Shown here: positions 17,489-30,739 of the stretch, piece after piece
Position numbering within the stretch: the first letter of the stretch is position 1
Layout: each line of letters opens with the position of its first letter
IMG/VR virus record: IMGVR_UViG_3300016476_000282
Coordinates: 1 to 30,739 of that record
DNA length: 30,739 nt
From: a virus
Lineage: Duplodnaviria > Caudoviricetes
Direction: 5' to 3' (one strand)
The notes under the pieces: generated by a model
Told to the model about the DNA's origin: nothing
Databases searched by the model: none
Seen by the model: the letters and a program-made list of their open reading frames with translations, nothing else
Translations under genes and position numbers: made by a program

Positions 17489-19030
17489 TCAAGTACTCAA
17501 AATATCGTAGTCGGACTGTGCGAACCGACCGTGCATGGCAGTACGGCGGCGCATCATCTGACTGTCGCGGCGTGCAACTTGCTCTGCGAATGTCAGCGCC
17601 AGTGCGTCGCCGTCATCAGGTGAAGCCAGACCCCGTTTCTTCATGGAGTCCTTTGTTTCCAATTTGATCTGGCCTTTGAGGTGGATACTGTACTCGGGGC
17701 CTGTCAAATCGTCAATCAACGTCGCTTCGTTGTCAATACAGCCATAGGTCAGCCACTCGCGCATGTCGCCCCACATCTCGGCTCGCCGGTTCAGGTACTT
17801 GTCAGGGTCATACGCCTTCTCGCCACTCTGGACCTCTATCACGCGGTAGCCAAGCTGTTTCAGACGGTCCACGACGCCGCCGCCCACGCCCCCGCCGTCC
17901 ACGAACACGGCGTCAGGATTGTACTTCTCGATTAGCGCTGCGACGTTGGCCGCAAGCTCCATGGTATCGACGCCACGGTACTTGACCGGGGCGATTGTAC
18001 GCGCGTCGCGCCCGCGCCTAAACCTGATTACGCTCTCGTCGTCACCGAACCGGGCGACGTCCACGCCCATCAGCAGCGGTGCACCATCGTCATTGATCAG
18101 CTCACGCTCTGCGGCGGCCTGTGCTGTGTCGCGTCCGATGAACTGATTCGATCCTGTGCGCGGAAACTCACCCTTGACCTCGACGCGGGTAACATCATGG
18201 TCCTCGCCGTACTTGTCAGCGATGCGCTGATACACGCCTGCATCGACACCCTCGACTGTACGACTATCGATGTACCGTGTCTCCCAGAACGCCCGGTCTT
18301 TGTGGAAGCACTCGAAGAACCGGCCAGTATTGCGTCGCGGGTTCGATATGGCCAACCACAGGCGCAGGAACGCCAGATCGGTAAAGAAGCCCTCAGTCAC
18401 CTGCCAGATGGGGTCAGGGATACCCGATGCCTCGTCGAACTGCACCATCATGCCGATCTGACTGTGTGCACCGGCAAACGCATCAGGGTTTTCCTCACTC
18501 CACGACTGCGCATCGACGTAGTAGTATTGTGTGTCCATCTTCAACTGCTGCTCAACGAGATCACCGAACCAGCGTGCAGGGCGCAGCGTGGTGCTGCTTT
18601 TGTCGAACCAGTGCGAGTTGATCGACATGGTGTGCCACTTACCCAACTCGGCCATTGTTCTTGAGCGCAACTGTGTCTCGGTGTTGGCGGTGACGATGGT
18701 TGTGGCTCCGATCCAGCACGACATCACCCACATGTCCAACATCGCCAGAAACGCCGACTTCCCCGGCCCACGACCCGACGAGATGGCCAAGTACAGCGGC
18801 TCAGGTGTTAGCCCGATGCGCTGCTTCTCAAGGTCAGTCTGCAAGTGGTCAGCGATGCGCTTGAACTCGTCGCGCTGCCAGCGGCGCGGACCACTGATCT
18901 TCTCCAGCGGTGTGCCTTTGACGCCCCATGGAAACGCATAGAGTGCATACGCCTCGGGGTCATACTTGAACTGAAGCAGGTCAGTGATTAACTGCTGCTC
19001 TTTGGACGATGGGCCAGCACTCTTACTCAT
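17489..19030 (-). CDS. terL: Terminase large subunit
   Basis: Walker A SGRGPGKS, Walker B MVQFDEASG, SNP coupling motif, RNase H-like nuclease motifs LMGVDVARFGDD and SPDDGDALALTF. Confidence 0.95.
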   Translation of the reverse strand: MSKSAGPSSKEQQLITDLLQFKYDPEAYALYAFPWGVKGTPLEKISGPRRWQRDEFKRIADHLQTDLEKQRIGLTPEPLYLAISSGRGPGKSAFLAMLDMWVMSCWIGATTIVTANTETQLRSRTMAELGKWHTMSINSHWFDKSSTTLRPARWFGDLVEQQLKMDTQYYYVDAQSWSEENPDAFAGAHSQIGMMVQFDEASGIPDPIWQVTEGFFTDLAFLRLWLAISNPRRNTGRFFECFHKDRAFWETRYIDSRTVEGVDAGVYQRIADKYGEDHDVTRVEVKGEFPRTGSNQFIGRDTAQAAAERELINDDGAPLLMGVDVARFGDDESVIRFRRGRDARTIAPVKYRGVDTMELAANVAALIEKYNPDAVFVDGGGVGGGVVDRLKQLGYRVIEVQSGEKAYDPDKYLNRRAEMWGDMREWLTYGCIDNEATLIDDLTGPEYSIHLKGQIKLETKDSMKKRGLASPDDGDALALTFAEQVARRDSQMMRRRTAMHGRFAQSDYDILST

Positions 19031-19583
19031 TGATCAGTCTCGGTGTGATGTCGATGGTGCGCTTATCTGCCAGTCGTTCATGGGCTGCTGCCATCGCTGC
19101 GCCAATGTCCACGGTCAGGTTGTGGTCGATCTGTTTGGTTTCACCGAAGCGTTTGCGGTTCCACACGCCCAGCAACCACTTACGAGTGTTGATGCGCAGG
19201 GTAGATCGTGCGACATCTTCGAGAGAGTCGTCAGCATCTGCAATGGCCAGCATTTCACTGGCAATCATCTCCGCGCCGATCTCCTGTGCTTCGTAATAGC
19301 GGTTCTTGCGATTCTCGTCTTTATGCACCCAGCGAAGAAAGTGCTCGTACTCAGGCTGGCGAAAGTCCGACCGCAGCACCTCTTTCAACGGCACACCTTC
19401 AGCGATCTTCACCAGCACCCACTCGAACATGTTCTCGAAGGTCAGGTTGTCCATCTCACGGGCGACAGCGGTTCGACGAGTGTTCGAATGGGCGCTGGGC
19501 CAATCGTGACTCGGCTCTATGGGTTTTGTCTGGTCCTCTTGCTGAGTCAACCAGTCAGGCAGCGTTTGGGTATGGGTATCCAT
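19023..19583 (-). CDS. terS: Terminase small subunit (Sf6 gp1-like)
   Basis: Likely start MDTHTQ at 19583; IAEG..LKEV...FLRWV...Y.EAQ.IGAE...E...IAD...LRI.TRKW...WN.KRFG pattern; overlaps the terL start. Confidence 0.75.
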   Translation of the reverse strand: MDTHTQTLPDWLTQQEDQTKPIEPSHDWPSAHSNTRRTAVAREMDNLTFENMFEWVLVKIAEGVPLKEVLRSDFRQPEYEHFLRWVHKDENRKNRYYEAQEIGAEMIASEMLAIADADDSLEDVARSTLRINTRKWLLGVWNRKRFGETKQIDHNLTVDIGAAMAAAHERLADKRTIDITPRLINE

Positions 19584-19817
19584 TGAATCAATATATCCCA
19601 TTTTCAAAAATTTTTATATTTTTCCTCGGAACCCATTGGGTTATCAGTTTCCAAGTTTCTCGGGGTGCTTGGGGTACCTCCCCTGCCAAAGTCTCGCCGC
19701 CGCCGTGGGGCTCCCCCTCCCCCTCGCCGCCACCGGCACCCCGGCACCCCCAGATAACGGGGTCAGATCCCCACCGGGTCAGGATTCACGGTGCCCAGGT
19801 TGCCGAGATTCCCGGAA

Positions 19818-19983
19818 TCCAATGGGTCGAATTGCACCCAGTGGGCACGTGAACCCAATGGGATTTTGTGAATCCAATGGGTCAAATTGCGATCAATGCG
19901 TGATCATGCCCCAATGGGTTCAATTGCTCAATGGGTCGGTGCCAATGGGTCAAAATCGGTGCATTGGGTCGGTTCCAATGGGT
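19818..19983. repeat. Array of ten short (C)CAATGGGT-like repeats at 14-19 bp spacing
   Basis: Cores start at 19820, 19839 (CAGTGGG), 19856, 19875, 19894 (CAATGCG), 19912, 19929, 19943, 19962 (CATTGGG) and 19976; outlying copies at 19631, 20135, 20185 and 20435. Confidence 0.9.
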
Positions 19984-20174
19984 TTTTGGGCGGTTTTGTG
20001 ACAACGGTTCCTTCGCGTGCGACCCCCTTGTTTTTACGATTTTCAAATTAGCACAAACTTTTCAAGAATCCGAGAATCTATACCCCCCTGACCAGTCACT
20101 ATTGTCACAATCTTCCCTTCAATGGAAACTATAGACCCAATGGGCACAATTGGCACAATCAATCAAATTACCCC

Positions 20175-20202
20175 TTGACATCTAACCCAATGGGTATATA
20201 CT
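20175..20202 (+). promoter_or_regulatory. Sigma70-type early promoter with palindromic site in the spacer
   Basis: TTGACA (20175-20180), 16-bp spacer, TATACT (20197-20202); ACCCAATGGGT at 20185-20195; first ORF starts at 20246. Confidence 0.8.
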
Positions 20203-20245
20203 CGCGCATGTAGTAACTGTTATCAATCAACCCGGAGAACTGACC

Positions 20246-20431
20246 ATGACCAAATTCGAAACCAAGCAAGTCCAAACGATCCGCGCTCATCTCGCGCTCG
20301 GTAACATCGAATCCGCTGCACTCGGCCTGTCGTCCCTGATCCGCTGCGCACGCACCGCCAAAAGCGCCAACGAACTAACCGCAATTGCTCATGAACTCAA
20401 ATTGCGCAATCACCCTGAGTTCCGAATCTAA
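20246..20431 (+). CDS. Early hypothetical protein (61 aa)
   Basis: GGAG RBS in CGGAGAACTGACCATG; first ORF after the promoter. Confidence 0.8.
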   Translation: MTKFETKQVQTIRAHLALGNIESAALGLSSLIRCARTAKSANELTAIAHELKLRNHPEFRI

Positions 20432-20441
20432 TTAACCCAAT

Positions 20442-20463
20442 GGGGCTGATTGATTTCAGCCCC
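20442..20463 (+). terminator. Intergenic hairpin (weak terminator, attenuator or processing site)
   Basis: GGGGCTGA-ttgatt-TCAGCCCC, 8-bp stem, followed only by TTAA. Confidence 0.5.
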
Positions 20464-20483
20464 TTAACCGCGGAGAACTGACC

Positions 20484-20657
20484 ATGATTTACAAAACCGC
20501 AGCCGCAGCCCGTAACGCACTCAATAGCCAACCCTTTACCCCGGCCTGTCGCGCACGACATGAAATTGTGCCGGTCTATAAACGCAACTTACTCGGCGAA
20601 ATTGAATCCCCGCAGCCAATTGGTTACGGATACCGCTTGAAAGGGGCCGCAAAATGA
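20484..20657 (+). CDS. Early hypothetical protein (57 aa)
   Basis: Below the ORF track cut-off; MIYKTAAAARNALNSQPFTPACRARHEIVPVYKRNLLGEIESPQPIGYGYRLKGAAK; same 17-nt RBS/start as the 20246 gene; ATGA overlap with the next gene. Confidence 0.8.
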   Translation: MIYKTAAAARNALNSQPFTPACRARHEIVPVYKRNLLGEIESPQPIGYGYRLKGAAK

Positions 20658-21001
20658 CACGCCACTATCAAACGATTCACCGAGAACAATTCCAAGGATT
20701 CGACATCGTTGTCTACATTACCCCCGAGGATATTTCCCCGGCTGATTGTTTCGATCCCGAGATCGATAACATTCCCGAGCTTTGCGAAAAAATCAATGAT
20801 GGCCGGCTGGAATGGTTCGTTGCCAAAGTAACCGCAAGCCGGTGCGGCATTGAACTCGCTTGCGAATATCTCGGTGCAAACCTGTACGCGAATGCACTCG
20901 AATTCGTCAATGAACCGCTGGGATACTTTCAAGATATGCGCCACGAAGCCGTGAACCATGCACGCGCCATGATCAAGCAACTAGCCGAGGGCGTGCAATG
21001 A
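20654..21001 (+). CDS. Early acidic hypothetical protein (115 aa)
   Basis: AAGGGG RBS, ATGA coupling at both ends. Confidence 0.8.
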   Translation: MTRHYQTIHREQFQGFDIVVYITPEDISPADCFDPEIDNIPELCEKINDGRLEWFVAKVTASRCGIELACEYLGANLYANALEFVNEPLGYFQDMRHEAVNHARAMIKQLAEGVQ

Positions 21002-21087
21002 ACTTGATCGAAATAATCCTCGGCCTGTTTGGCTTTGCTGTCTTTTACGCCTTCCTTGTGATCGTTTTATCTTTCGGAGGTTACTGA
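20998..21087 (+). CDS. Small hydrophobic single-pass membrane peptide (29 aa)
   Basis: MNLIEIILGLFGFAVFYAFLVIVLSFGGY; GAGGG RBS, ATGA overlap, fills the gap to the next gene. Confidence 0.65.
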   Translation: MNLIEIILGLFGFAVFYAFLVIVLSFGGY

Positions 21088-21088
21088 A

Positions 21089-21406
21089 ATGCAATATTCA
21101 CTTGATCGTGCCATTCATGACGCTAAATTCCCGAATCGCTCGGGACAAACAGAGGTGTCTACTGTCAAACTGACCGACGAACAACAATCCGTAATCTTTG
21201 AAATTGTCGCAAAGGGCTGTCGATCAGCCACAAAAGCCGCAATTGGTCGCCGCTTAGAATTGCCCTTGTCACTCTGGCCTTCATTCGGCCTATTTAGTCG
21301 CTTGATCCTTTGGGACGACAATACAAACATCCCTTATTACATTACTGGACAGGATTTCAATGTCGAACGTAAATCATTGCGTGACTGTATCCTCGGGAAA
21401 GGTTAA
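21089..21406 (+). CDS. Early hypothetical protein (105 aa)
   Basis: GGAGG RBS; in operon order. Confidence 0.8.
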   Translation: MQYSLDRAIHDAKFPNRSGQTEVSTVKLTDEQQSVIFEIVAKGCRSATKAAIGRRLELPLSLWPSFGLFSRLILWDDNTNIPYYITGQDFNVERKSLRDCILGKG

Positions 21407-21410
21407 CCAA

Positions 21411-21623
21411 ATGACCCTATACACCGACCTAATAGACGCCGGGATCGAGGTGCGCAATTGGCAATCTGATCTTTATTTCCCGGTCACTCCGGAATCAAAA
21501 GAAATATTGTTTCGATACCCGAAACAATCTCGATCCGTTTTCAAAAGCAATGCAGACGGACAAATAATGTATGAATGCCCGTTTGCGTTTGATCCATATT
21601 GGCAAACAAGGGGGTTTAAATGA
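21411..21623 (+). CDS. Early hypothetical protein (70 aa)
   Basis: Likely start MTLYTDL at 21411 (AAAGG upstream); ATGA overlap with the next gene. Confidence 0.75.
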   Translation: MTLYTDLIDAGIEVRNWQSDLYFPVTPESKEILFRYPKQSRSVFKSNADGQIMYECPFAFDPYWQTRGFK

Positions 21624-22096
21624 TTACTGAAAACCTGAAAGCAATTAAGCGCTGGGAACGTCCGAACGACTATTTCGGCGCTGACTGGCCTAAATACTTC
21701 GTTTTTCTCGGCCAGCATCGGGATAGTGACAGCGCAACCCGGTCTAACTTTATCGTTGGGCTTGAGGCGCTCGGCGGTGAATCCGAAACCGTGATTGTTG
21801 TTCGCGAGCGCCACTGGGCCGTCGGCTGGGTCGAATGGATCGGTATTCATGAATCAGACGAGGCGCGGATCATTGAAGCGGACGAGATGTTATGCGCACT
21901 GTCTGATTATCCGGTGCTGTCGGACGATCATTTGAGCGAGCTTGAATGGAACGAAGCTTGTTTTCAGTGGGAATCGATGCCCGTTAAATACCGCGTCGAA
22001 TTGTGCCGGGACGCTGGCGTGAGCATATTCGCCGCGCGTCATGATTACATGCCGGAGGATGATACCGGCTTTATTTTTGAATCTTTAAGGGGCTGA
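21620..22096 (+). CDS. Early acidic, Trp-rich hypothetical protein (158 aa)
   Basis: AAGGGGG RBS; RDSD...SNF, HWAVGWVEWI and DYPVLSDD motifs. Confidence 0.8.
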   Translation: MITENLKAIKRWERPNDYFGADWPKYFVFLGQHRDSDSATRSNFIVGLEALGGESETVIVVRERHWAVGWVEWIGIHESDEARIIEADEMLCALSDYPVLSDDHLSELEWNEACFQWESMPVKYRVELCRDAGVSIFAARHDYMPEDDTGFIFESLRG

Positions 22097-22099
22097 ATC

Positions 22100-22291
22100 A
22101 TGACAATGACACTTCAGGAAAAAGAAAACCTCGCATATCTGGCCGGGGACACCGAAAAAGCCGAGATACTCGCAGACCTGATCCAATTGAATAAATTTTG
22201 TGAAGCTCAGGAAGCAAGGATCGAAGAACTCGAATGCGAATGCACCGCATTGCGTCGGGAGATTCAAGCATTATTAGATCGGCTGGAATAA
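22100..22291 (+). CDS. Small acidic coiled-coil hypothetical protein (63 aa)
   Basis: AAGGGG RBS; heptad-like C-terminal half. Confidence 0.75.
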   Translation: MTMTLQEKENLAYLAGDTEKAEILADLIQLNKFCEAQEARIEELECECTALRREIQALLDRLE

Positions 22292-22503
22292 TGTTTTTCC
22301 ATCCCGACATGACCGATGCCGAGATTCTGCGCACATGTGACGGTGTGCAATCCCGACATTTGCGGTTACTGGCCGATCGCCTCGGCCAGCGATCCCGGCA
22401 ATTGCAGGATGTTGCCCGGCTTTGCAGAGTTGCTCGGAAAACCTCGGACACTGTATTGCTTCAATCGACTCTGATTCAGATTGAATCAATTGCCACTGAC
22501 TAA
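22291..22503 (+). CDS. Hypothetical protein (70 aa)
   Basis: Likely start MFFHPD at 22291 overlapping the previous stop (TAATG); ends just before a terminator. Confidence 0.7.
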   Translation: MFFHPDMTDAEILRTCDGVQSRHLRLLADRLGQRSRQLQDVARLCRVARKTSDTVLLQSTLIQIESIATD

Positions 22504-22510
22504 CCCAAAC

Positions 22511-22536
22511 CCCCGGAGCAATCCGGGGATTCTTTT
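22511..22536 (+). terminator. Rho-independent terminator
   Basis: CCCCGGA-GCAA-TCCGGGG (GNRA loop) followed by ATTCTTTT. Confidence 0.75.
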
Positions 22537-22551
22537 CAGGATCAAAACCCA

Positions 22552-22818
22552 ATGACCAAACGCACCAAAAAGCCATCAGAGGCCACAAAACCCGAAGCTG
22601 CTACCCTAACCCCGGCTGACCTGAAGAAATGGCGTGAGCGCCTCGGATTAGGCGTGCAAGGCATGGCCGAGTACCTCGGAATCCCGGTTCATACACTGAC
22701 CAAATGGGAAAACGGCACCCGCGCACCCGACGCCGCACCGCGTCGATTGTTCGAGGTGCTCGGGCTGATCGAGGCCATGGCACCATCTATCCACGATGTG
22801 CTGTTGCCGCGTAAATAA
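22552..22818 (+). CDS. XRE/Cro-type helix-turn-helix protein
   Basis: LTPADLKKWRERLGLGVQGMAEYLGIPVHTLTKWENGTRAP is a typical HTH_XRE pattern. Confidence 0.85.
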   Translation: MTKRTKKPSEATKPEAATLTPADLKKWRERLGLGVQGMAEYLGIPVHTLTKWENGTRAPDAAPRRLFEVLGLIEAMAPSIHDVLLPRK

Positions 22819-22824
22819 TAAAAA

Positions 22825-22902
22825 TCCCCGTACCCTATTCGGATTTCCCAATGGAAATTTTAAGTCCGAAAAAAGTACGGGGAAAAGGGGGCCGGTACCC
22901 CC
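22825..22902. terminator. Nested inverted repeats between convergent operons (candidate bidirectional terminator)
   Basis: TCCCCGTAC(22825-33)/GTACGGGGA(22875-83), TTCGGA/TCCGAA, inner ATTTCC-caat-GGAAAT, then GGGGG-ccggta-CCCCC. Confidence 0.55.
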
Positions 22903-22930
22903 ACCTCACTGAAGGCGGGTAAATTTTAAA

Positions 22931-23353
22931 TCATTGGGGTGAATTTTTCTCCCGCAGCTTGGCTTCAATGCAGCGGCGCAAGTTCTGAAAGACGCTTCCG
23001 GTCTTGGCTGCGTCGTAGTCTGCTCGCTGCAGGAGCGTCGCATATTCCTCATCCGTCAGCCCTTGCCATTCGCGCTGTGGTGGGGCGGTGTAGAGTGGTG
23101 CTGAATCAGGCCAGCCGGGTGTATCGCTGAACGGATAGTCGCAAGTCCAGTCAATTTGTCCATCTTCATCAAGCACACCATACGCCACCAGCTCCGGTTC
23201 CTTTGCTGCTAGTGCTGCGCGGAGTGCTTCGATTCGCTCGTCATACCATTCCGTTCCTTCAGGATGCTTTATCTTCTCGCGGCTCATTACGAACACACGG
23301 CTAGATTCCAACGCATCCAGCGCCATCTGCGCGGCTTCTCTAAGTGTTGTCAT
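22931..23353 (-). CDS. Hypothetical modular phage protein
   Basis: Likely start MTTLREAAQMALDALE at 23353 (GGAGAGAACAATG); PLYTAPPQREWQGLTDEE and IEAKLREKN segments common in accessory phage proteins. Confidence 0.75.
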   Translation of the reverse strand: MTTLREAAQMALDALESSRVFVMSREKIKHPEGTEWYDERIEALRAALAAKEPELVAYGVLDEDGQIDWTCDYPFSDTPGWPDSAPLYTAPPQREWQGLTDEEYATLLQRADYDAAKTGSVFQNLRRCIEAKLREKNSPQ

Positions 23354-23639
23354 TGTTCTCTCCTGCGGGTTCATACGTCATCTCAAATATGTCAGGCTTA
23401 CATGGGTAGAATTCGCCTTTTACTCCTTTGATGACCCAATCAAATTCACTTGCTGTAATAAATCCTTCAAATGTTTTAATCTTCATAAAACGTTCAATTG
23501 GCGGCATCATTGTATCGTCACTGTCCCAGCACCATTCTTTGACGTAACCACTTTCACTTATCCAGTTATAAATTTCTTGAAAACTGTTGTCAGTTAACTG
23601 TTTTGCTTCAATCACTACTGGTTTTTTACGATATTTCAT
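23340..23639 (-). CDS. Conserved phage hypothetical protein
   Basis: MKYRKKPVVIEA...I.T.EG...AS..DW.IKGVKGEFYPCKPDIF..TYE, a widespread phage family of unknown function. Confidence 0.85.
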   Translation of the reverse strand: MKYRKKPVVIEAKQLTDNSFQEIYNWISESGYVKEWCWDSDDTMMPPIERFMKIKTFEGFITASEFDWVIKGVKGEFYPCKPDIFEMTYEPAGENNDNT

Positions 23640-23648
23640 TGTTCTCTC

Positions 23649-24071
23649 CTATCTAAACACAACAAGCGCAGACGGAAACGGAGCAGAATTTTTACTATCG
23701 CCAAACTTTAAGCGACCACGAATAAAGGTAACAATCCCATACTGTGCATAGTCATGCCACCATGCCGTATCAGTCCGTGCTGGGACAAGACAAACAACCA
23801 TTGTTCCGTTGCCAGCAGATTCTTTTGCTTTCTTCATCCATTTGCCTATTTCTCTGCCGTAAGGTGGATTCATCCAACATTTGCCTGTCCACGTTTGTTT
23901 TAATCCGTCCATTTGTTTGTCAAAATACTTAGCGCATTTTGTGTTATTTGCGTCGGCGCAAACATCAATATCAAACTTTCCGTATTGTTTTTCGCAAGCA
24001 TCGAAAAAGTCTTGTGGTGTTGCCCATTGGTCTGTATTGCTGGTAAGTAACCCTTTATTTATTTTTGTCAT
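23649..24071 (-). CDS. Phage DNA N6-adenine methyltransferase (phage Dam-like family)
   Basis: W.TPQ..F, F..DVCA (SAM-binding), WMNPPYG (catalytic), LVPARTDT.WW and FIRGRLKF motifs. Confidence 0.9.
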   Translation of the reverse strand: MTKINKGLLTSNTDQWATPQDFFDACEKQYGKFDIDVCADANNTKCAKYFDKQMDGLKQTWTGKCWMNPPYGREIGKWMKKAKESAGNGTMVVCLVPARTDTAWWHDYAQYGIVTFIRGRLKFGDSKNSAPFPSALVVFR

Positions 24072-24273
24072 TGTTCTCTCCGGTTGCTTTGTTCTTATGG
24101 CTGTTTATCTCCGTAGCTCCAGCTTTTGATGCAGGCCAGATAAGTTGATTTTGGTTAATGGTCAAGTCGTAGCCAAAACGCATCGCATTAACCAACGCTG
24201 GTGTCATCGCCGTGAACTGTTTCGGGTTAGGCTCGTCAGGGCAGATAGTGATTGTGTAAGGTAACTTAGCCAT
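24055..24273 (-). CDS. Hypothetical protein (72 aa)
   Basis: GGAGAGAACAATG start; overlaps the methyltransferase start. Confidence 0.75.
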   Translation of the reverse strand: MAKLPYTITICPDEPNPKQFTAMTPALVNAMRFGYDLTINQNQLIWPASKAGATEINSHKNKATGENNDKNK

Positions 24274-24508
24274 TGTTCTCTCCGGTTGCCTTATGTAGTG
24301 CTTTACGCGCTACCTTATAGTGAATCCTGCTATCTTCCGGCAGGTCTATGATCTGCTGTAACGCTTCCACCAACTCCGCATTGACCTCATGCAATCGGCG
24401 TAACTCTACTGCGGCTTGCCCTTGCACGTCTTGCCACCACATTGAACCCGAATGATCTCTTTCAATCTCATCAGCCAGCCTCAATGCTTCTGGTTGTTTG
24501 TCAGTCAT
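24266..24508 (-). CDS. Hypothetical protein (80 aa)
   Basis: QPEALRLAD...AA.ELRRLH..NAELVEAL...A..AL.KATGE, a common accessory phage module; AAGGGG RBS. Confidence 0.8.
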   Translation of the reverse strand: MTDKQPEALRLADEIERDHSGSMWWQDVQGQAAVELRRLHEVNAELVEALQQIIDLPEDSRIHYKVARKALHKATGENNG

Positions 24509-24654
24509 TTCATCCCCTTTCCGATTTCTGCTGCTGCCCTTACGATGGCTCGGCGTGTTGCTGCGTATCCGTCATCCCAGAACTTTTCCGCTTCTTCTTT
24601 GTAAGCAAACTTACGCAACAGCACACCTGTTTCATCGTAAACCCAAAATCTCAT
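24505..24654 (-). CDS. Small hypothetical protein (49 aa)
   Basis: Below the ORF track cut-off; MRFWVYDETGVLLRKFAYKEEAEKFWDDGYAATRRAIVRAAAEIGKGMK; GAGGGG RBS; ATGA overlap with the next gene. Confidence 0.7.
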   Translation of the reverse strand: MRFWVYDETGVLLRKFAYKEEAEKFWDDGYAATRRAIVRAAAEIGKGMK

Positions 24655-24657
24655 TAT

Positions 24658-27177
24658 TCACCCCTCATCCATTGTGTCAGGGTCATATCCCTTGACAAAT
24701 TTGCGCCCTTTATAGTTCGGGCTATTGACAGCCAGCTTGTATATCTCGTCAACATGTCGTTGCTTCGCTTTGATAACCTGCTGCCTGTAATCTTTAAATA
24801 AGTTAGGTAGTTCTGGATTGATCGCCCAGACCACATGCCGCTTGTTAAATTGCTCCTCAACCTGCATCACCCAACCCGATTGCTCCAACATCAGCATGGA
24901 GTCCATCACCATCTGATCCTTTTGCCATTCGCTCATATTCTCAAGAGGCCTGCGTGCCGACCGCTTCAACTCTCGCAGTGTCACCATTTGCTTTTCATCG
25001 CAAATGTGAATAATGTGATCAGTCATCCACTGATCAAGTGAATCGTCAGCCAGACCACCGACTTCACCCAATGAATACCGTAGTGCTGGAATAATGTATC
25101 CACGCACCAAGCGCACCACACGATTCGTCACATCAGCTGATACTTCGATGTCATAAGGTGATTCGATGAGATGAAACAACAGGATCAATCGACCAGCCAG
25201 ACCTTCAAGTTTGCCAAATGCTGTGAGATAGGTGTTATCTGCTTTCACCAATCGCTCATCTTGCTTCGCTTGCTCATACCACGCTTGGAACTCACGATAT
25301 GCGTTATAGGCTGGCTCACTCATGCGATAGATCATCGGCGGCAACCCGTACACGGTACGCACCATGTGATCGTATTCAGCCTTGTTCGTCATGTAGTCTG
25401 GTACCGGATGACCCAGCTTCGTTTTGTTCCCGCGCAGCACAATCGGAATGAATCGCTGAAGCAGGCCATCTGACGACAGGTTGCGCACGTTGTCCTTGAA
25501 CACACGCGGCTGGATATTGCCAAAGATTGACACGGCCAGATTGCTCGCGTGAATGCTGCCACTGCCTACCCGGTCCATCTCGTAGTGCTCACCCTCGTAA
25601 CTGACCACCCATGCCGACCGATCCTCGCCGCTGGTCTTGTCGGTGATCTTGCGCACCCATGCGTTCATCTCGTCCAGATAGCACAGCAGCCCCCGCGGCC
25701 TGTCAGCAGCCGATCTGACCAGCTTCTGCGAAGTAATGTCCGACACTGTGATCTTCAGTGATACCGGGGGCGGCGGCAGCTCGGGTACCACCGGGGGCAT
25801 GGTGTTGGCCAACAGCGCCTCGGGTGTCTGGGCGAACTCAATGAACGCCTTTTTGGCCATCGCGTACTGTGCCTCTTTGGACTCCCAGTTCAGCTGCTCT
25901 TTGGCGAACCGGGGGCGATCCTCAGCCTCAATCTCTTTCAAAACCTGAAACATTGGCCGACTGCCGGGCGACTTCTTATCCGCGGGGTCCCCGAGCGTCA
26001 TCAGCCACAGGATCGGCGGTACCCGGAACCCCGGCATTAGTTCCAGCCTGATACGGGCATCCACGGCCCCACAGACGGCCCCCAGACCCGCGAACAGGGG
26101 CACCAGAGGATCACACCCCACCGACTCGGCAATCTCGTCTGCGCGGGTCGCCAGCACCCTTGGGAACAGGCTCAGGTCGAGGTCGGGTGCTGGCGGGCGC
26201 AGATCGGTGATGATCTTCTTCGGGGAAGCCGTAGTTGTTGGCGAAAACAGGGTCGATACGTCCGGGGTGGGCCTAACCCAGCCATGACGGCGTGCAATGT
26301 GAAAAAGCGTGCCCAGCTTGACGCTGGTGGCCTTGTCTGGCCTGAAGCTGCTCCATTGGGTCAGGATGTCGCGCTCACCCGGATATTTGCTCTGGCTCTG
26401 GGCTGACCACTCATTCCACAGGTACAGCGCCTGGTCGATCTGCCCGGTCGCGGTACCGGCCCAGTGCAACGCCATGCCTATGTTGATCCATTCCTCGCGG
26501 GAAACATCCGGGCTGATATGCTCAAGCGCCCCACGAATTTCCTCCCATGAGGCGTCGATCGACTCGCCCATGGACATCGATCGCGCTCGGTCCTGCTCAA
26601 GTAAATAATTCCAAAAATTTAATAATTCTGTGGGGATGGTTGGCAACCGGGACCAGTGGCCGCGTCCGGCCCAGCGGTACGGCTGATGTGTGTCCGGGTG
26701 GATCGACGGCGGCAGCACATCCTGAACCGTCAGGTTGTTGGCAGTTGCACACCGGAAATCCAGATAATTAAACCGCTTACCGTCTGGCGCCACATCAATC
26801 AGCTTCTTCGACGGCAGCGCCAGCCCGAACGGCATCGCGTACAGCAGCTTGCCATGGCCCTGCCTGCCACTGTCCACGATCACCGCGTCAGGGGCGTCGT
26901 AGAGCGCGTTCAGATCGACGCCGTGGATGGCCAACTCAGCCGCAGCGCGGTCCCAGACATCCACATCAAGCGCCATGGTGCCACTGTAGGCGTGGGCCAG
27001 ACCAATACCGAACCCCGGCAGCAGATCGGTCTGTGACTTCAGCGCAGATTCGCGAAGGTTCCAGCCTCGGTTTGTCGGCCCCTTTGTACCCGGTGGGATT
27101 GGCACCAATGACCAGCCGTGACGGATATAGGCGTCAACAGAGGCAGGGTGCTGTTGGACTTGTGGTACTGTTGTCAT
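24658..27177 (-). CDS. Bifunctional primase-polymerase (Prim-Pol) with PriCT-2 and DUF3987-like NTPase/helicase domain
   Basis: Likely start MTTVPQV at 27177; Y..HGWSLVPI.PGTKGP...GW, ALDVD and VLPPSIHP.T..PYRW (Prim-Pol); AL..ISPD..REEWI.IGMAL...WS....KY....W.SF...GTLF..A (PriCT-2); G.P..KKSP, YLDEM and SDGLLQRF (DUF3987-like). Confidence 0.88.
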   Translation of the reverse strand: MTTVPQVQQHPASVDAYIRHGWSLVPIPPGTKGPTNRGWNLRESALKSQTDLLPGFGIGLAHAYSGTMALDVDVWDRAAAELAIHGVDLNALYDAPDAVIVDSGRQGHGKLLYAMPFGLALPSKKLIDVAPDGKRFNYLDFRCATANNLTVQDVLPPSIHPDTHQPYRWAGRGHWSRLPTIPTELLNFWNYLLEQDRARSMSMGESIDASWEEIRGALEHISPDVSREEWINIGMALHWAGTATGQIDQALYLWNEWSAQSQSKYPGERDILTQWSSFRPDKATSVKLGTLFHIARRHGWVRPTPDVSTLFSPTTTASPKKIITDLRPPAPDLDLSLFPRVLATRADEIAESVGCDPLVPLFAGLGAVCGAVDARIRLELMPGFRVPPILWLMTLGDPADKKSPGSRPMFQVLKEIEAEDRPRFAKEQLNWESKEAQYAMAKKAFIEFAQTPEALLANTMPPVVPELPPPPVSLKITVSDITSQKLVRSAADRPRGLLCYLDEMNAWVRKITDKTSGEDRSAWVVSYEGEHYEMDRVGSGSIHASNLAVSIFGNIQPRVFKDNVRNLSSDGLLQRFIPIVLRGNKTKLGHPVPDYMTNKAEYDHMVRTVYGLPPMIYRMSEPAYNAYREFQAWYEQAKQDERLVKADNTYLTAFGKLEGLAGRLILLFHLIESPYDIEVSADVTNRVVRLVRGYIIPALRYSLGEVGGLADDSLDQWMTDHIIHICDEKQMVTLRELKRSARRPLENMSEWQKDQMVMDSMLMLEQSGWVMQVEEQFNKRHVVWAINPELPNLFKDYRQQVIKAKQRHVDEIYKLAVNSPNYKGRKFVKGYDPDTMDEG

Positions 27178-27206
27178 TCCTGTCCCAAAATATTTTTCTC
27201 GACCTG

Positions 27207-27236
27207 TTGCACATCGTAATCCATTTGTGATACGCT
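27207..27236 (+). promoter_or_regulatory. Candidate rightward sigma70 promoter of the replication operon
   Basis: TTGCAC (27207-27212), 18 bp, TG-A-TACGCT extended -10 (27231-27236), in the ~80-bp divergent gap. Confidence 0.45.
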
Positions 27237-27259
27237 TGCAAGCATCAAGTGAGGGAAAT

Positions 27260-27463
27260 ATGCCAGCACCGTCAATTTTTAATTGCCACATCACTTTCCG
27301 GGTCAACAACAAAACCCGGATTGCCTTTAATCGCAAGGCACAGAAATACGGGATACCGTCCGATGTGCTGCGCGAACTTGTTCAGGCGTTTCTCGATGAT
27401 CGCCTTGTAATTCAACCTGACCCAAAGAAGGAGAGCTTGTATGTCACTAGAATCGAAAATTGA
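27260..27463 (+). CDS. Small ribbon-helix-helix-like DNA-binding protein
   Basis: Likely start at 27260 (GAGGG RBS); HITFRV strand, helix, G.PSDVLRELVQAFL helix fits the Arc/CopG pattern. Confidence 0.65.
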   Translation: MPAPSIFNCHITFRVNNKTRIAFNRKAQKYGIPSDVLRELVQAFLDDRLVIQPDPKKESLYVTRIEN

Positions 27464-27872
27464 TAAATTGATCACGGCTGTTGAGGCACTTACGAATGCG
27501 CTTAATTCGCAAGGTTCTCAAACGATGGCCGCGCCGCCAGTACAAGCCCCTGTCGCTGCGCCAGCGCCTATTCCTCAAGCTCCTGCTATACCTCAAGCAC
27601 CCGTGGCTGCCCCGCCTGTAGCGCAGCAACAAATGCCCGCTGCACCGACTTTTGAGATGCCTGCTGCTGCACCGGCAATCACTGGTGCACCGTTCAATGA
27701 CGGCAAGGGTCTGATTGCTTATGTGATGGAGGCATACAAGGCGATGGGTCCACAAAAAGGTGCAGGTATTCAGAATGTGCTGACAGCACTGGGCTATGGC
27801 AACATCAATGATGTGAAGCCCGAGCACTACGGCACACTGTATGCTCAAGTTGAAGCGTTAAAAGCCGCATGA
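27441..27872 (+). CDS. Pro/Ala-rich hypothetical protein
   Basis: AAGGAG RBS; N-terminal helix, PA-rich linker, C-terminal small domain; this layout is typical of genes preceding DUF2800. Confidence 0.8.
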   Translation: MSLESKIDKLITAVEALTNALNSQGSQTMAAPPVQAPVAAPAPIPQAPAIPQAPVAAPPVAQQQMPAAPTFEMPAAAPAITGAPFNDGKGLIAYVMEAYKAMGPQKGAGIQNVLTALGYGNINDVKPEHYGTLYAQVEALKAA

Positions 27873-29164
27873 GCGATCACGCCTTATTGTCACCGAGTCG
27901 TGCCCATCGCTGGATGGCGTGCCCCGGTTCGATCAGGGAAGAATCAAAATACCCTGATGAATCTGGTCCTGCCGCAGTTGATGGTACGCACACTCACTCG
28001 TTGCTTGAATACTGTATCAAAAACGATATGCTGGACCCACATAGCATGGTGGGTGCAGAGCTTACTGATCATGAAGGTAAATTTGTTGTCGATGATCAGC
28101 GAGCCAATCGAGTTCGCATGGCGCTTGATTACATTAAACAGCGCATTGCCGAATACAACGGCATGTGTGAAGTAATCAGTGAAACCCGTGTTGACCCAGC
28201 GTATCTTATCGGTCGCACTGATATGTCCGGTACCGTGGACGTTCAGATTCGTGGTGGTCGTGTCATTGAACTCATCGACTACAAGGATGGCATGAACCTT
28301 GTGGAAGCTGATGGCAATGTGCAATTGCTGCAATATGCGATTGGTGTTCTTGCAGGCTTCGAGCGTCCAATAAACGCTGAGTATCCTTTCGATGTAATTC
28401 GCATGACAATCATTCAGCCGAAACTGGCAATGAAAGGTCAAAATTACATCATGCACTGGGAGTTGTTTGTATCCGAAGTTATCGCTAAAATGGGCGACTT
28501 CATCGTCAAAGCAAAAGCTACTGACGACCCAAATGCACCACTGATTCCCGGTGAGCGTCAATGTAAATATTGCCGAGCAAAAGGTAGCTGTTCAGCCTTG
28601 GCAAGTAATGTGATGAAAGAGGTCGGTGTTATGTTCCAAGTTACTGAAACTTCTCCGCTTGATCTGGCGCACCAAAGCGCCAACAAAGACCCGAACACCA
28701 TGACGGATCAGCAGATTCGTGAAATCATGGAAGCAGCACCACTGATGCGCCAGTTGCTTGAGAGTGTTGAAGAAGAAGCATTGCGCCGCATGAAGAAGGG
28801 TCAATCGATTCCCGGTTTGAAGATTGTCAATGGTCGCGGCTCGCGTGTATGGGCGCTGCCTGAGAATGAAATGGCCGAGAAGCTGGTCAAACTGGGTATT
28901 CCGAAATCAGAAGTATATGAAACAAAACTTTTGTCACCTTCCAAAGCCGAAAAGGTGACTTGGAAAAAACGTGACGGTACTCAAAAATGTTTATCGGAAC
29001 GCCAGATCAAAACACTGAATCAAGAATATGTTGTAAAAATGGCGGGTAAGTTAACCGTCGCACCAGAATCAGATGACCGCCCTGCTGTGGTCTTTGATGC
29101 GTCGTCGATGTTTGGCGCAATTGAGTCGCAGGTACCTGAAGCAATGCCTGCTTGGTTAATGTAA
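27869..29164 (+). CDS. DUF2800-family Cas4-like PD-(D/E)XK exonuclease
   Basis: HALLSPS.A.RW..CPGS, GT..H, GTVD, IDYKDG, QL..YA.G, I.QP and C..C.AK..C (1+3 Cys, Fe-S staple arrangement). Confidence 0.9.
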   Translation: MSDHALLSPSRAHRWMACPGSIREESKYPDESGPAAVDGTHTHSLLEYCIKNDMLDPHSMVGAELTDHEGKFVVDDQRANRVRMALDYIKQRIAEYNGMCEVISETRVDPAYLIGRTDMSGTVDVQIRGGRVIELIDYKDGMNLVEADGNVQLLQYAIGVLAGFERPINAEYPFDVIRMTIIQPKLAMKGQNYIMHWELFVSEVIAKMGDFIVKAKATDDPNAPLIPGERQCKYCRAKGSCSALASNVMKEVGVMFQVTETSPLDLAHQSANKDPNTMTDQQIREIMEAAPLMRQLLESVEEEALRRMKKGQSIPGLKIVNGRGSRVWALPENEMAEKLVKLGIPKSEVYETKLLSPSKAEKVTWKKRDGTQKCLSERQIKTLNQEYVVKMAGKLTVAPESDDRPAVVFDASSMFGAIESQVPEAMPAWLM

Positions 29165-29177
29165 ATTGGAGATTGTT

Positions 29178-29900
29178 ATGTCAGATATTATTTATCTCAG
29201 TAATGTTCGTTTGTCTTTCCCCCACATCATCGAACCTCAACGTCAAGTTAATGAACAGACCGGTAAAGAGCGCATCAGCTATAACTGCGAGTTCATCATG
29301 GCAAAAGATCATGTTGGCTTTGCACAATTTATGCAGCGTTATGCGGCAATGGCCGCCGAAAAGTGGAAAGAACATGCGAACACTGTGATGAGCATGATTC
29401 AGAATGATCGTAAATCACGATGCTACGGTGTCGGTGAGGAAAAGATCAACAAGAAAACATTCCAACCCTACGATGGGTATGTTGGTCATGTGTTCATCAC
29501 CGCTGGTCGTGATACTGCACCGCAAATCATTCAGGCCGATGGTCAACCCATCGATCCGGCAAACACGATGGCGTATCAGCAACTGGCTCGCAAGATGTAC
29601 GGCGGCTGTCGTGTCAATGCTGCTGTCAAACCGTGGTTGCAAGAAAACACACATGGTCGCGGTATTCGTTGCGATCTGATTGCGGTACAGTTTGCAGGCG
29701 ACGATGCGGCGTTCGGTGAAGGCGCACCCGATGTGACTGGTATGTTTGGCGCTGTGGCTGCTGCAACGGCTCCTGTGGCTGGTATGGCACCTATGCCTGC
29801 AATGCCTGCTGCACCATTTGCCGGTGCACCAGCGGCACCTCAGATGGCAGCACCAGCGATGCCAGCGGTACCGGGTCTGCCGCCATTCATGCAGCAATAA
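29178..29900 (+). CDS. DUF2815-family single-stranded DNA-binding protein
   Basis: Likely start MSDIIY at 29178 (GGAGA RBS); NVRLSFP.I.EP, YGGC.VNA and GI...L.AVQF..D...FG motifs. Confidence 0.85.
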   Translation: MSDIIYLSNVRLSFPHIIEPQRQVNEQTGKERISYNCEFIMAKDHVGFAQFMQRYAAMAAEKWKEHANTVMSMIQNDRKSRCYGVGEEKINKKTFQPYDGYVGHVFITAGRDTAPQIIQADGQPIDPANTMAYQQLARKMYGGCRVNAAVKPWLQENTHGRGIRCDLIAVQFAGDDAAFGEGAPDVTGMFGAVAAATAPVAGMAPMPAMPAAPFAGAPAAPQMAAPAMPAVPGLPPFMQQ

Positions 29901-29905
29901 GTCAA

Positions 29906-29978
29906 TGGGTCAATGCGACGGATGCTAGTAGGTAGTTCTCTGGTCAGTTCTCCCTATTAGTGCAGACGCATTGACCCA
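29906..29978 (+). ncRNA. Candidate trans-acting antisense RNA hairpin
   Basis: 12-bp outer stem TGGGTCAATGCG/CGCATTGACCCA, 9-bp inner stem GCTAGTAGG/CCTATTAGT with G-U pairs, 20-nt loop; 29941-29953 is complementary to the RBS at 20234-20246 and 20472-20484. Confidence 0.7.
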
Positions 29979-29986
29979 CCCTTTTC

Positions 29987-30063
29987 GGTGACAACAGGAC
30001 GGCAGTGGCATACCGCACACGGTCATTGGGAGTGCAGTCACCTGACACCTCGGAAAGACGGGG
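29987..30063 (+). ncRNA. Second structured RNA element upstream of the polymerase gene
   Basis: GGTGAC/GTCACC closing stem, CAGTGGC/GTCATTG inner stem with G-U pairs, terminal CCTCG-GAAAGA-CGGGG hairpin. Confidence 0.5.
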
Positions 30064-30081
30064 ACTTACAAAAATAAATCC

Positions 30082-30738
30082 ATGCGAGACTTTATCTACG
30101 ATATTGAGACATACCCGAATGTGTTCACGATGAACGTGAAGCACGCGGAGTCTGGTTTTCGTTGGATGTTTGAAATAAGTGATTATCGTGACGACTCTCG
30201 AAGCATCATTGACTTTGTTCGCTACTTGGCAGACATCCACGCTCGCATGGTTGGCTTCAACAACTTGGGTTTTGATTACCCTGTTGTCCATTTTTTGCTT
30301 CTTAATCCTAAAGCCGGTGCTAAAGGATTGTACGAGCGAGCTATGGCCATTATCAAAAATCAAGATGACGAAAATCGTTGGGCTTTTCAAGTCAAACCAA
30401 CAGACAGATCAGTCGAACAGATAGACTTGTTCAAGATTCATCACTTCGATAACAAAGCGAAAGCCACCAGTCTCAAGGTGCTTGAGTTCAATATGCGCTC
30501 GCATAGCATTGAGGACCTGCCGTTCAAGGTTGGCACGACATTGACTGCTGATCAGATTCCGGTTCTCAAGAAATACAACGCGCACGATGTTGATGAGACT
30601 CACAAGTTTTTCAATCATTCGATCAAGATGGTCGAGTTTCGTGAAGAACTAACGCGCAAGTATCAGCGCGACTTCATGAACCACAATGATACTAAGATCG
30701 GCAAAGATTATTTCATCATGAAGTTGGAAGAAGCCGGG
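30082..30738 (+). CDS. DNA polymerase, N-terminal 3'-5' exonuclease domain (partial; runs off the right edge)
   Basis: Not in the ORF track; ATG at 30082 gives MRDFIYDIETYPNVF (ExoI), MVGFNNLGFDYP (ExoII) and KYNAHDV (ExoIII). The polymerase family cannot be fixed from this part alone. Confidence 0.88.
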   Translation, partial: MRDFIYDIETYPNVFTMNVKHAESGFRWMFEISDYRDDSRSIIDFVRYLADIHARMVGFNNLGFDYPVVHFLLLNPKAGAKGLYERAMAIIKNQDDENRWAFQVKPTDRSVEQIDLFKIHHFDNKAKATSLKVLEFNMRSHSIEDLPFKVGTTLTADQIPVLKKYNAHDVDETHKFFNHSIKMVEFREELTRKYQRDFMNHNDTKIGKDYFIMKLEEAG

Positions 30739-30739
30739 A

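Follow-up and report, generated by a model that had tools for sequence, protein, structure and literature searches.

The window analysed here is the whole of a partial viral record (30,739 nucleotides, 30.7 kb) from a podophage-type phage. Nearly all of its sampled words were found in one freshwater metagenome run, which may be where it comes from; a small share also occurs in the metatranscriptome runs X10 and X13, which we do not take as evidence of expression. Structural genes lie on the minus strand and read leftward. A run of small genes starts at 20246, behind a sigma-70-like promoter (TTGACA / TATACT, 20175..20202, plus strand) that is the best consensus match (11/12) in 19000-30739. 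Early gene 1 (20246..20431, plus strand; 61 aa) has homologues in seven relatives at 38-48% identity, and early gene 2 (20484..20657, plus strand; 57 aa) is an exchangeable cassette. Neither matches a PHROG or Pfam family, and both are presumed early from their position and promoter on this partial contig.

A minus-strand primase faces a plus-strand exonuclease-SSB-DNA polymerase operon. The gap of interest separates the single-stranded DNA-binding protein gene (SSB; PF10991, phrog_112; 29178..29900, plus strand) from the N-terminal part of a DNA polymerase gene (phrog_1252; 30082..30739, plus strand). No promoter or terminator was called in this gap, and no integrase or immunity module was seen in the partial contig. 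From 27441 to 30739 the replication module resembles that of phage DSL-LC05 (OR003940.1; 65-84% identity), but the portal and capsid do not match that phage, and on this comparison the genome reads as a mosaic. DSL-LC05 has the replication module in common with the window, but a different gap insert and a different leader.

Two other repeated elements lie nearby. A CCCAATGGG-type repeat is clustered at 19631-20437, between the small terminase gene and the early promoter, with one copy between the -35 and -10 boxes; the copy at 19943 has 11 nt in common with the 5' arm of the hairpin (29903). The repeat is possibly an operator or a packaging signal. At 23340-24285 on the minus strand, another leader, GGAGAGAACAATG, is common to four small cassette genes, and 7 nt of it are complementary to the 5' half of the hairpin tip (GTTCTCT).

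Hairpin and early leaders

The hairpin spans 29906..29981 on the plus strand and comprises a 12-bp outer stem, an internal loop, a 9-bp inner stem and a weakly paired tip, followed by ACC. Both stems can be read directly, as first described: the outer stem (29906-29917/29967-29978) has 12 perfect pairs and the inner stem (29924-29932/29953-29961) has nine, including two G-U. Folding bears them out, with z = -4.10 and 0 of 200 shuffles as good (z = -3.02 for a wider stretch). The 20-nt loop of the sequence-only reading is not fully open, with four more weak pairs predicted inside it; its 6-nt apical part is. This hexaloop, CUGGUC (29940..29945, plus strand), is of the YUNR type, is 98-100% unpaired in the predicted fold, recurs in other lineages and is the predicted seed for pairing. 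GGT stands at 29908 and ACC directly follows the stem, where it may form an acceptor-like end for release by RNase P. No Rfam family reached its gathering score in the window, and a search of 29870-30110 with E up to 10 returned just a sub-threshold fragment of a Drosophila lncRNA.

The same gap holds a second structured element with a small hairpin (29987..30063, plus strand; fold z = -1.5), which we read as one or more separate RNA cassettes. Gap elements two and three (GGCAGTGGCATA..GCACACGG and CACCTCGGAAAGACG; window 30000-30063) recur in unrelated phages, with similar stretches in records L216 (12875-12919) and L115 and in the Ralstonia phages Adzire, Bakoly and kin. An array of structured RNAs, including a tRNA-like element, precedes the terminase of L216 (12480-13380). 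We take a CTGATGA...GAAA stretch of L216 to resemble a hammerhead core; Rfam gave no hammerhead match in the array.

The tip carries a 13-nt segment (29941..29953, plus strand) that is the exact reverse complement of GGAGAACTGACCA, found at 20234-20246 and 20472-20484 on the plus strand. This complementarity was correctly reported from the sequence, but the segment is not wholly borne by the loop: its last base, 29953, lies in the stem. The sense copies belong to a start-associated leader, GGAGAACTGACC-ATG, which stands before early gene 1 (20234..20248, predicted target 1) and early gene 2 (20472..20486, predicted target 2), both on the plus strand. The window contains no further GGAGAACTGACCA copies at up to two mismatches. 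Opening the whole 13-mer in the hairpin is predicted to cost 7.4 kcal/mol and opening the target 2.6-4.5 kcal/mol, against -22.9 kcal/mol for the hairpin-leader duplex. The predicted net of about -11 to -13 kcal/mol and the predicted fold support an exposed seed and favourable pairing with the leader.

A single 13-mer match is weak evidence alone, because 0.39 antisense 13-mers are expected per contig, against one seen, when all 40 start windows are counted under uniform composition. The expectation of 0.001 first quoted for this match was post hoc. Nor are the two targets independent, because early genes throughout the clade have repeated leaders. It is conservation and recurrence, and not the one match, that carry the excess over chance.

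Variation in close and distant relatives

We aligned contigs of four public runs (X2, X3, X4 and X6) to the window; X3, X4 and X6 are nearly one haplotype. Stem pair 29912/29972 changes from A-U to G-C in all four runs (A29912G with T29972C), and 29930/29955 does the same in X3, X4 and X6 (A29930G with T29955C). In those three runs 29928/29957 also changes from G-U to U-G and 29929/29956 from U-A to U-G; 29917/29967 changes from G-C to G-U in X3 and X6. All five altered pairs of the X3-type haplotype stay canonical (p about 0.007 under uniform substitution), as do three of four in the main X2 contig. A second X2 contig has a remodelled left arm and aligns through 29955 before diverging; the changes listed omit six of run X2, probably from this contig. 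The sequence-only reading had proposed RNA-level structure from the G-U pairs, which favour the plus strand as RNA, and the compensatory and G-U substitutions agree with it. Together they support selection on the hairpin as a plus-strand RNA structure.

The tip varies less. Among the changes listed, the sole one in the loop is C29940T (X3, X4 and X6), which lies outside the 13-mer and keeps the YUNR pyrimidine. The loop had been expected to be conserved, and none of the listed changes falls in 29941-29953 in the four fully readable contigs, against 36 variable sites in the 166-nt gap (p = 0.036 relative to the whole gap and 0.16 relative to the hairpin alone). The expected co-variation of loop and leader was not found in relatives, where both are constant wherever seen. 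At the targets, the match to the window ends at 20248 in one X3 contig and at 20486/20487 in X2 contigs, and beyond these points the contigs continue into different genes. Because alignment ends at the ATG with another gene beyond, the leader appears, among the changes listed, to be kept while the cassette behind it is swapped. One metagenome match, L198 (97% exonuclease identity), was set aside as uninformative since its likeness to the window ends inside SSB.

For gap comparison we gathered 80 SSB relatives at 71-85% identity (L001-L080). In their gaps a G-rich stem encloses structured inserts of many unrelated kinds. Among the matches listed, ACC comes directly after this stem in 53 of the 77 relatives examined; control trinucleotides gave 0-35, so the test is loose and suggestive only. 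The early genes of these relatives have repeated leaders that are genome-specific. We rejected antisense pairing across the clade: in 22 distant relatives the longest helix between hairpin and own leader averaged 6.1, against 6.3 with the leaders of others (permutation p 0.89; three of 25 relatives were dropped for want of a usable hairpin, and gene starts were called by a heuristic). The longest such helix in the window is 13. Hairpin-leader pairing is not a clade trait, and these relatives do not show it because the SSB-polymerase gap serves as a slot in which different RNAs are exchanged. We also rejected as leaders the minus-strand GAACTGACCATG copies of SSB relatives, which are antisense of a coding stretch.

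Across the window gap (29901-30081) and those of L001-L080 there are at least ten unrelated structured RNA inserts, with a G-started stem that often ends in ACC. They include tRNA-like tips (L036 and L063) and a recurring stalk, GAAAGCGGATG...AGCGAGTA. An Rfam search of 18 relative loci found two tRNA-like tips and no other family. Just past the SSB stop in L017, L030, L051, L056 and L205, an upstream AAGCCAG pairs with CTGGCTT in a loop, and the two change jointly to AAACCAG and CTGGTTT; judged by this joint change, the insert family is likely a pseudoknot.

Tip and leader in unrelated phages

A scan of a viral collection for the leader gave at least 120 loci, and about 610 stretches hold GGAGAACTGACCATG. 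One phage found through its leader is G002 (53.8 kb, 96% complete). It carries the leader three times, in two cases right after a promoter-like sequence, together with an intergenic hairpin (z = -3.7) at whose tip (ACTTTGGTCAGTTCA) GGGGACTTTGGTCAGTTCACCCC matches 12 of the 13 leader positions. This hairpin belongs to a cluster of RNAs located between the early genes and the terminase, where Rfam gave sub-threshold matches only.

We built a 17-nt pattern from the window and G002 and scanned for the loop only. The scan returned 25 loci, of which 15 form one tip family by manual reading, with three or more distinct stems among them; in viral records other than the window, the tip core YTGGTCAGTTC is borne by different stems. 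Six of the 15 tip-family records also have start-associated GAACTGACCA (G002, its sister L473, G015, G006, G022 and G025). In two lineages with 0-1 proteins in common with the window phage, GAACTGACCA immediately precedes 2-5 start codons. There are six sense copies in G006, five of them directly before ATG, with a varying Shine-Dalgarno and a fixed 10-mer. The one antisense copy of G006 lies in a hairpin 0.7 kb past a target, with a terminator after it, and a reversed-pattern control in G006 gave 0 matches.

The window, G002 and G006 have 0-1 common ORFs of at least 100 aa. In each of them the leaders are the top-ranked duplex partners of the tip among 120-243 start windows; in G002 and G006 the pairing is 10-11 bp, with a mismatch in the Shine-Dalgarno part. 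Non-family matches of the loop scan that were searched whole had an opposite-orientation copy in 0 of 7 (20 of the 25 loci entered). Control loci numbered 403 (8.08 million strand-bases); none of them contained the 13-nt tip core, and their gene-start leader copies came from about one phage. These sequence comparisons support co-occurrence of the tip and the start-associated leader in two unrelated lineages besides the window.

Tip and leader also occur apart. Nine of the 15 tip records have no exact target of their own; six of these are 7-31% fragments, and the other three are G009 (98% complete), G016 (68%) and G019 (71%). A fourth lineage, with one record 98% complete, bears the tip without a target. 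Among leader records searched whole, 4 of 116 had an opposite-orientation 10-mer, and only that of G006 lies in a tip; the other three are ordinary, on par with seven control matches. The leader is repeated in G107 (92% complete) and G004 (100%), neither of which has an exact antisense copy. G107 (L605-L610) is a GC-rich 117-kb phage with many start-associated GGAGARCTGAYCATG variants, a motif that resembles the start-associated sequences of mycobacteriophages.

A second loop-leader pair sought across the gathered loci gave 21 true matches against 18 and 11 control matches. Generic loop-leader scans do not separate from controls, and there is no variant pair among the matches listed, so covariation, the strongest test, is missing. 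A scaffold pattern scan was discarded (116 loci, mostly chance, no close relative). An outer-stem pattern scan found no close relative, and a loop-plus-arm pattern scan gave 0 matches. The genome collection scan gave two matches, neither in a comparable hairpin, a query with early gene 3 gave none, and no cultured phage record had the hairpin.

Known systems and proposed mechanism

The phage RNAs most like the hairpin in action would be c4 of P1 and P7 and the similar CI RNA of P4. YUNR loops occur in antisense systems such as CopA/CopT. The accessible texts describe c4 as a processed 77-nt RNA whose loops cover a ribosome-binding site, and attribute its release from a longer transcript to RNase P, as shown by others (PMC5320573, PMC12197685, PMC11143913). 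The hairpin resembles c4 (Rfam RF01695) in being phage-encoded, about 75-77 nt long and in displaying, in trans, a loop complementary to the ribosome-binding site of a phage message encoded elsewhere. Its stem starts with G, as does that of c4 in those texts, and it too may be released from a longer transcript. RNase P makes the 5' end of c4 at a GGW stem; the hairpin has its GGT at 29908. It differs in having one long hairpin with one apical loop, whereas c4 has three stems with loops a' and b', and in having as predicted targets several exchangeable early genes with a common leader, whereas c4 acts on an antirepressor message. Because it neither matches the RF01695 covariance model nor has the three-stem anatomy, we do not assign it to the C4 family. 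A YUNR/U-turn loop is also described, in the accessible text, for bsrG/SR4 (PMC4152353). As in such systems the YUNR loop is the predicted first contact; unlike bsrG/SR4 and CopA/CopT, which are cis-encoded with long full complementarity, the hairpin is trans-encoded and would pair over 10-13 bp.

In published anatomy the nearest parallel is the start-associated sequence (SAS) of cluster K mycobacteriophages, which likewise has one reverse copy. The main text of Pope et al. (2011; PMC3203893) describes SAS as an asymmetric motif of 13 nt that occupies the ribosome-binding position of non-structural genes, is conserved more than 16S pairing requires and has a single reverse copy away from gene starts. 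That text leaves its function open and does not propose that the reverse copy is displayed on a hairpin or acts as an antisense. Our element shares the repeated asymmetric motif at ribosome-binding sites (two copies here, 2-5 in G015, G002 and G006) and the single reverse copy apart from any gene start. It differs in sequence and host group, and its 2-5 copies compare with the 11-19 given there for cluster K. Our search, which covered main texts and few subscription papers, found no published description of the element, and the accessible parts of PMC2864571 and bioRxiv 10.64898/2026.09.22.753630 hold nothing on it.

We consider it probable that the conserved hairpin at 29906-29981, with its tip complementary to the early leader, is a trans-acting antisense RNA that blocks ribosome loading. 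An antisense brake on early-gene translation is likely because this loop and this leader are found together again in two unrelated lineages. Since no promoter or terminator was called in the gap, the RNA would be made with the exonuclease-SSB-polymerase transcript, and host RNase P could cut it free at the G-started, ACC-ended stem, giving an RNA of about 75 nt. Contact would begin between the YUNR hexaloop and GACCA at the start codon, and pairing would then zip through the Shine-Dalgarno to 13 bp. Translation would be lowered for whichever genes bear the leader, and genes would join this control by gaining the leader, whichever cassette stands behind it. The hairpin RNA is best explained as an accessory module that occupies a slot with exchangeable contents, and not as part of the clade's core. 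An early-to-middle switch driven by the replication operon, as the sequence-only reading had it, is not supported as a general scheme: that layout is specific to this genome, and the hairpins of G006 and G002 are placed otherwise. The G006 hairpin stands at the end of an early operon led by a target, an arrangement that points to general negative feedback and not to a fixed early-to-middle switch.

In another reading, phages would trade the tip horizontally as an anti-leader RNA whose main action is on other phages: it would silence early genes of co-infecting phages with GAACUGACCA leaders and regulate its own phage as a side effect. This would explain the tip-only genomes, such as the near-complete record with no target of its own, and accords with an identical tip on different stems in backbones with 0-1 common proteins, with the many RNA inserts of the SSB-polymerase gap, and with small moron stretches common to the window and G002 that hint at one gene pool. 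We think it unlikely, as own targets in three of four lineages would expose a phage to its own RNA, common hosts are presumed, and an orphan tip may be a recently gained or decaying cassette. A broader version is rather unlikely too: that freshwater phages trade a plug-in anti-leader tip on interchangeable, RNase P-released stems, with GAACUGACCA-leader genes as its regulon and tip-only phages silencing competitors.

Alternatively, a third partner from host or phage (an RNA, a protein, or a protein acting at the DNA level) might read GAACUGACCA, with the hairpin as its mimic or decoy. A common partner would explain why the sequence is invariant across unrelated lineages and does not drift in pairs as c4 does between P1 and P7 (PMC5320573, in its accessible part), and many phages have the leader without the tip. 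RNA or protein binding is likewise left open for SAS motifs in the main text of Pope et al. (PMC3203893). We find this improbable, because in every case the lone reverse copy is found at the apex of a hairpin, on the transcribed strand and on G-U-tolerant stems, a display that a DNA operator would not need, and no such factor has been identified. Finally, a real structured cassette serving processing or stability might match a common strong ribosome-binding sequence by chance, given the roughly 610 GGAGAACTGACCATG stretches, the 0.39 chance 13-mers per contig, 0-3 control apical matches per ordinary-sized record in generic per-genome scans, the unrelated inserts of the clade slot and some 250,000 windows scanned; but coincidence is quite improbable with the tip and a multi-copy start-associated leader in three unrelated backbones, one of them (G006) picked by a loop-only scan, and about one leader-bearing phage in 8 Mb of controls.

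In the years since Pope et al. (2011), the repeated start-associated motifs of phages have had no function assigned to them. Our analysis links one such motif to a particular RNA partner whose structure is conserved and which occurs again in unrelated phages. If an antisense brake is the right reading, sets of swappable early genes would be controlled through one small RNA and one common leader, and RNA regulators would move as cassettes, like genes. Were the traded tip to prove true, it would mean RNA-based interference between unrelated lytic-type phages.
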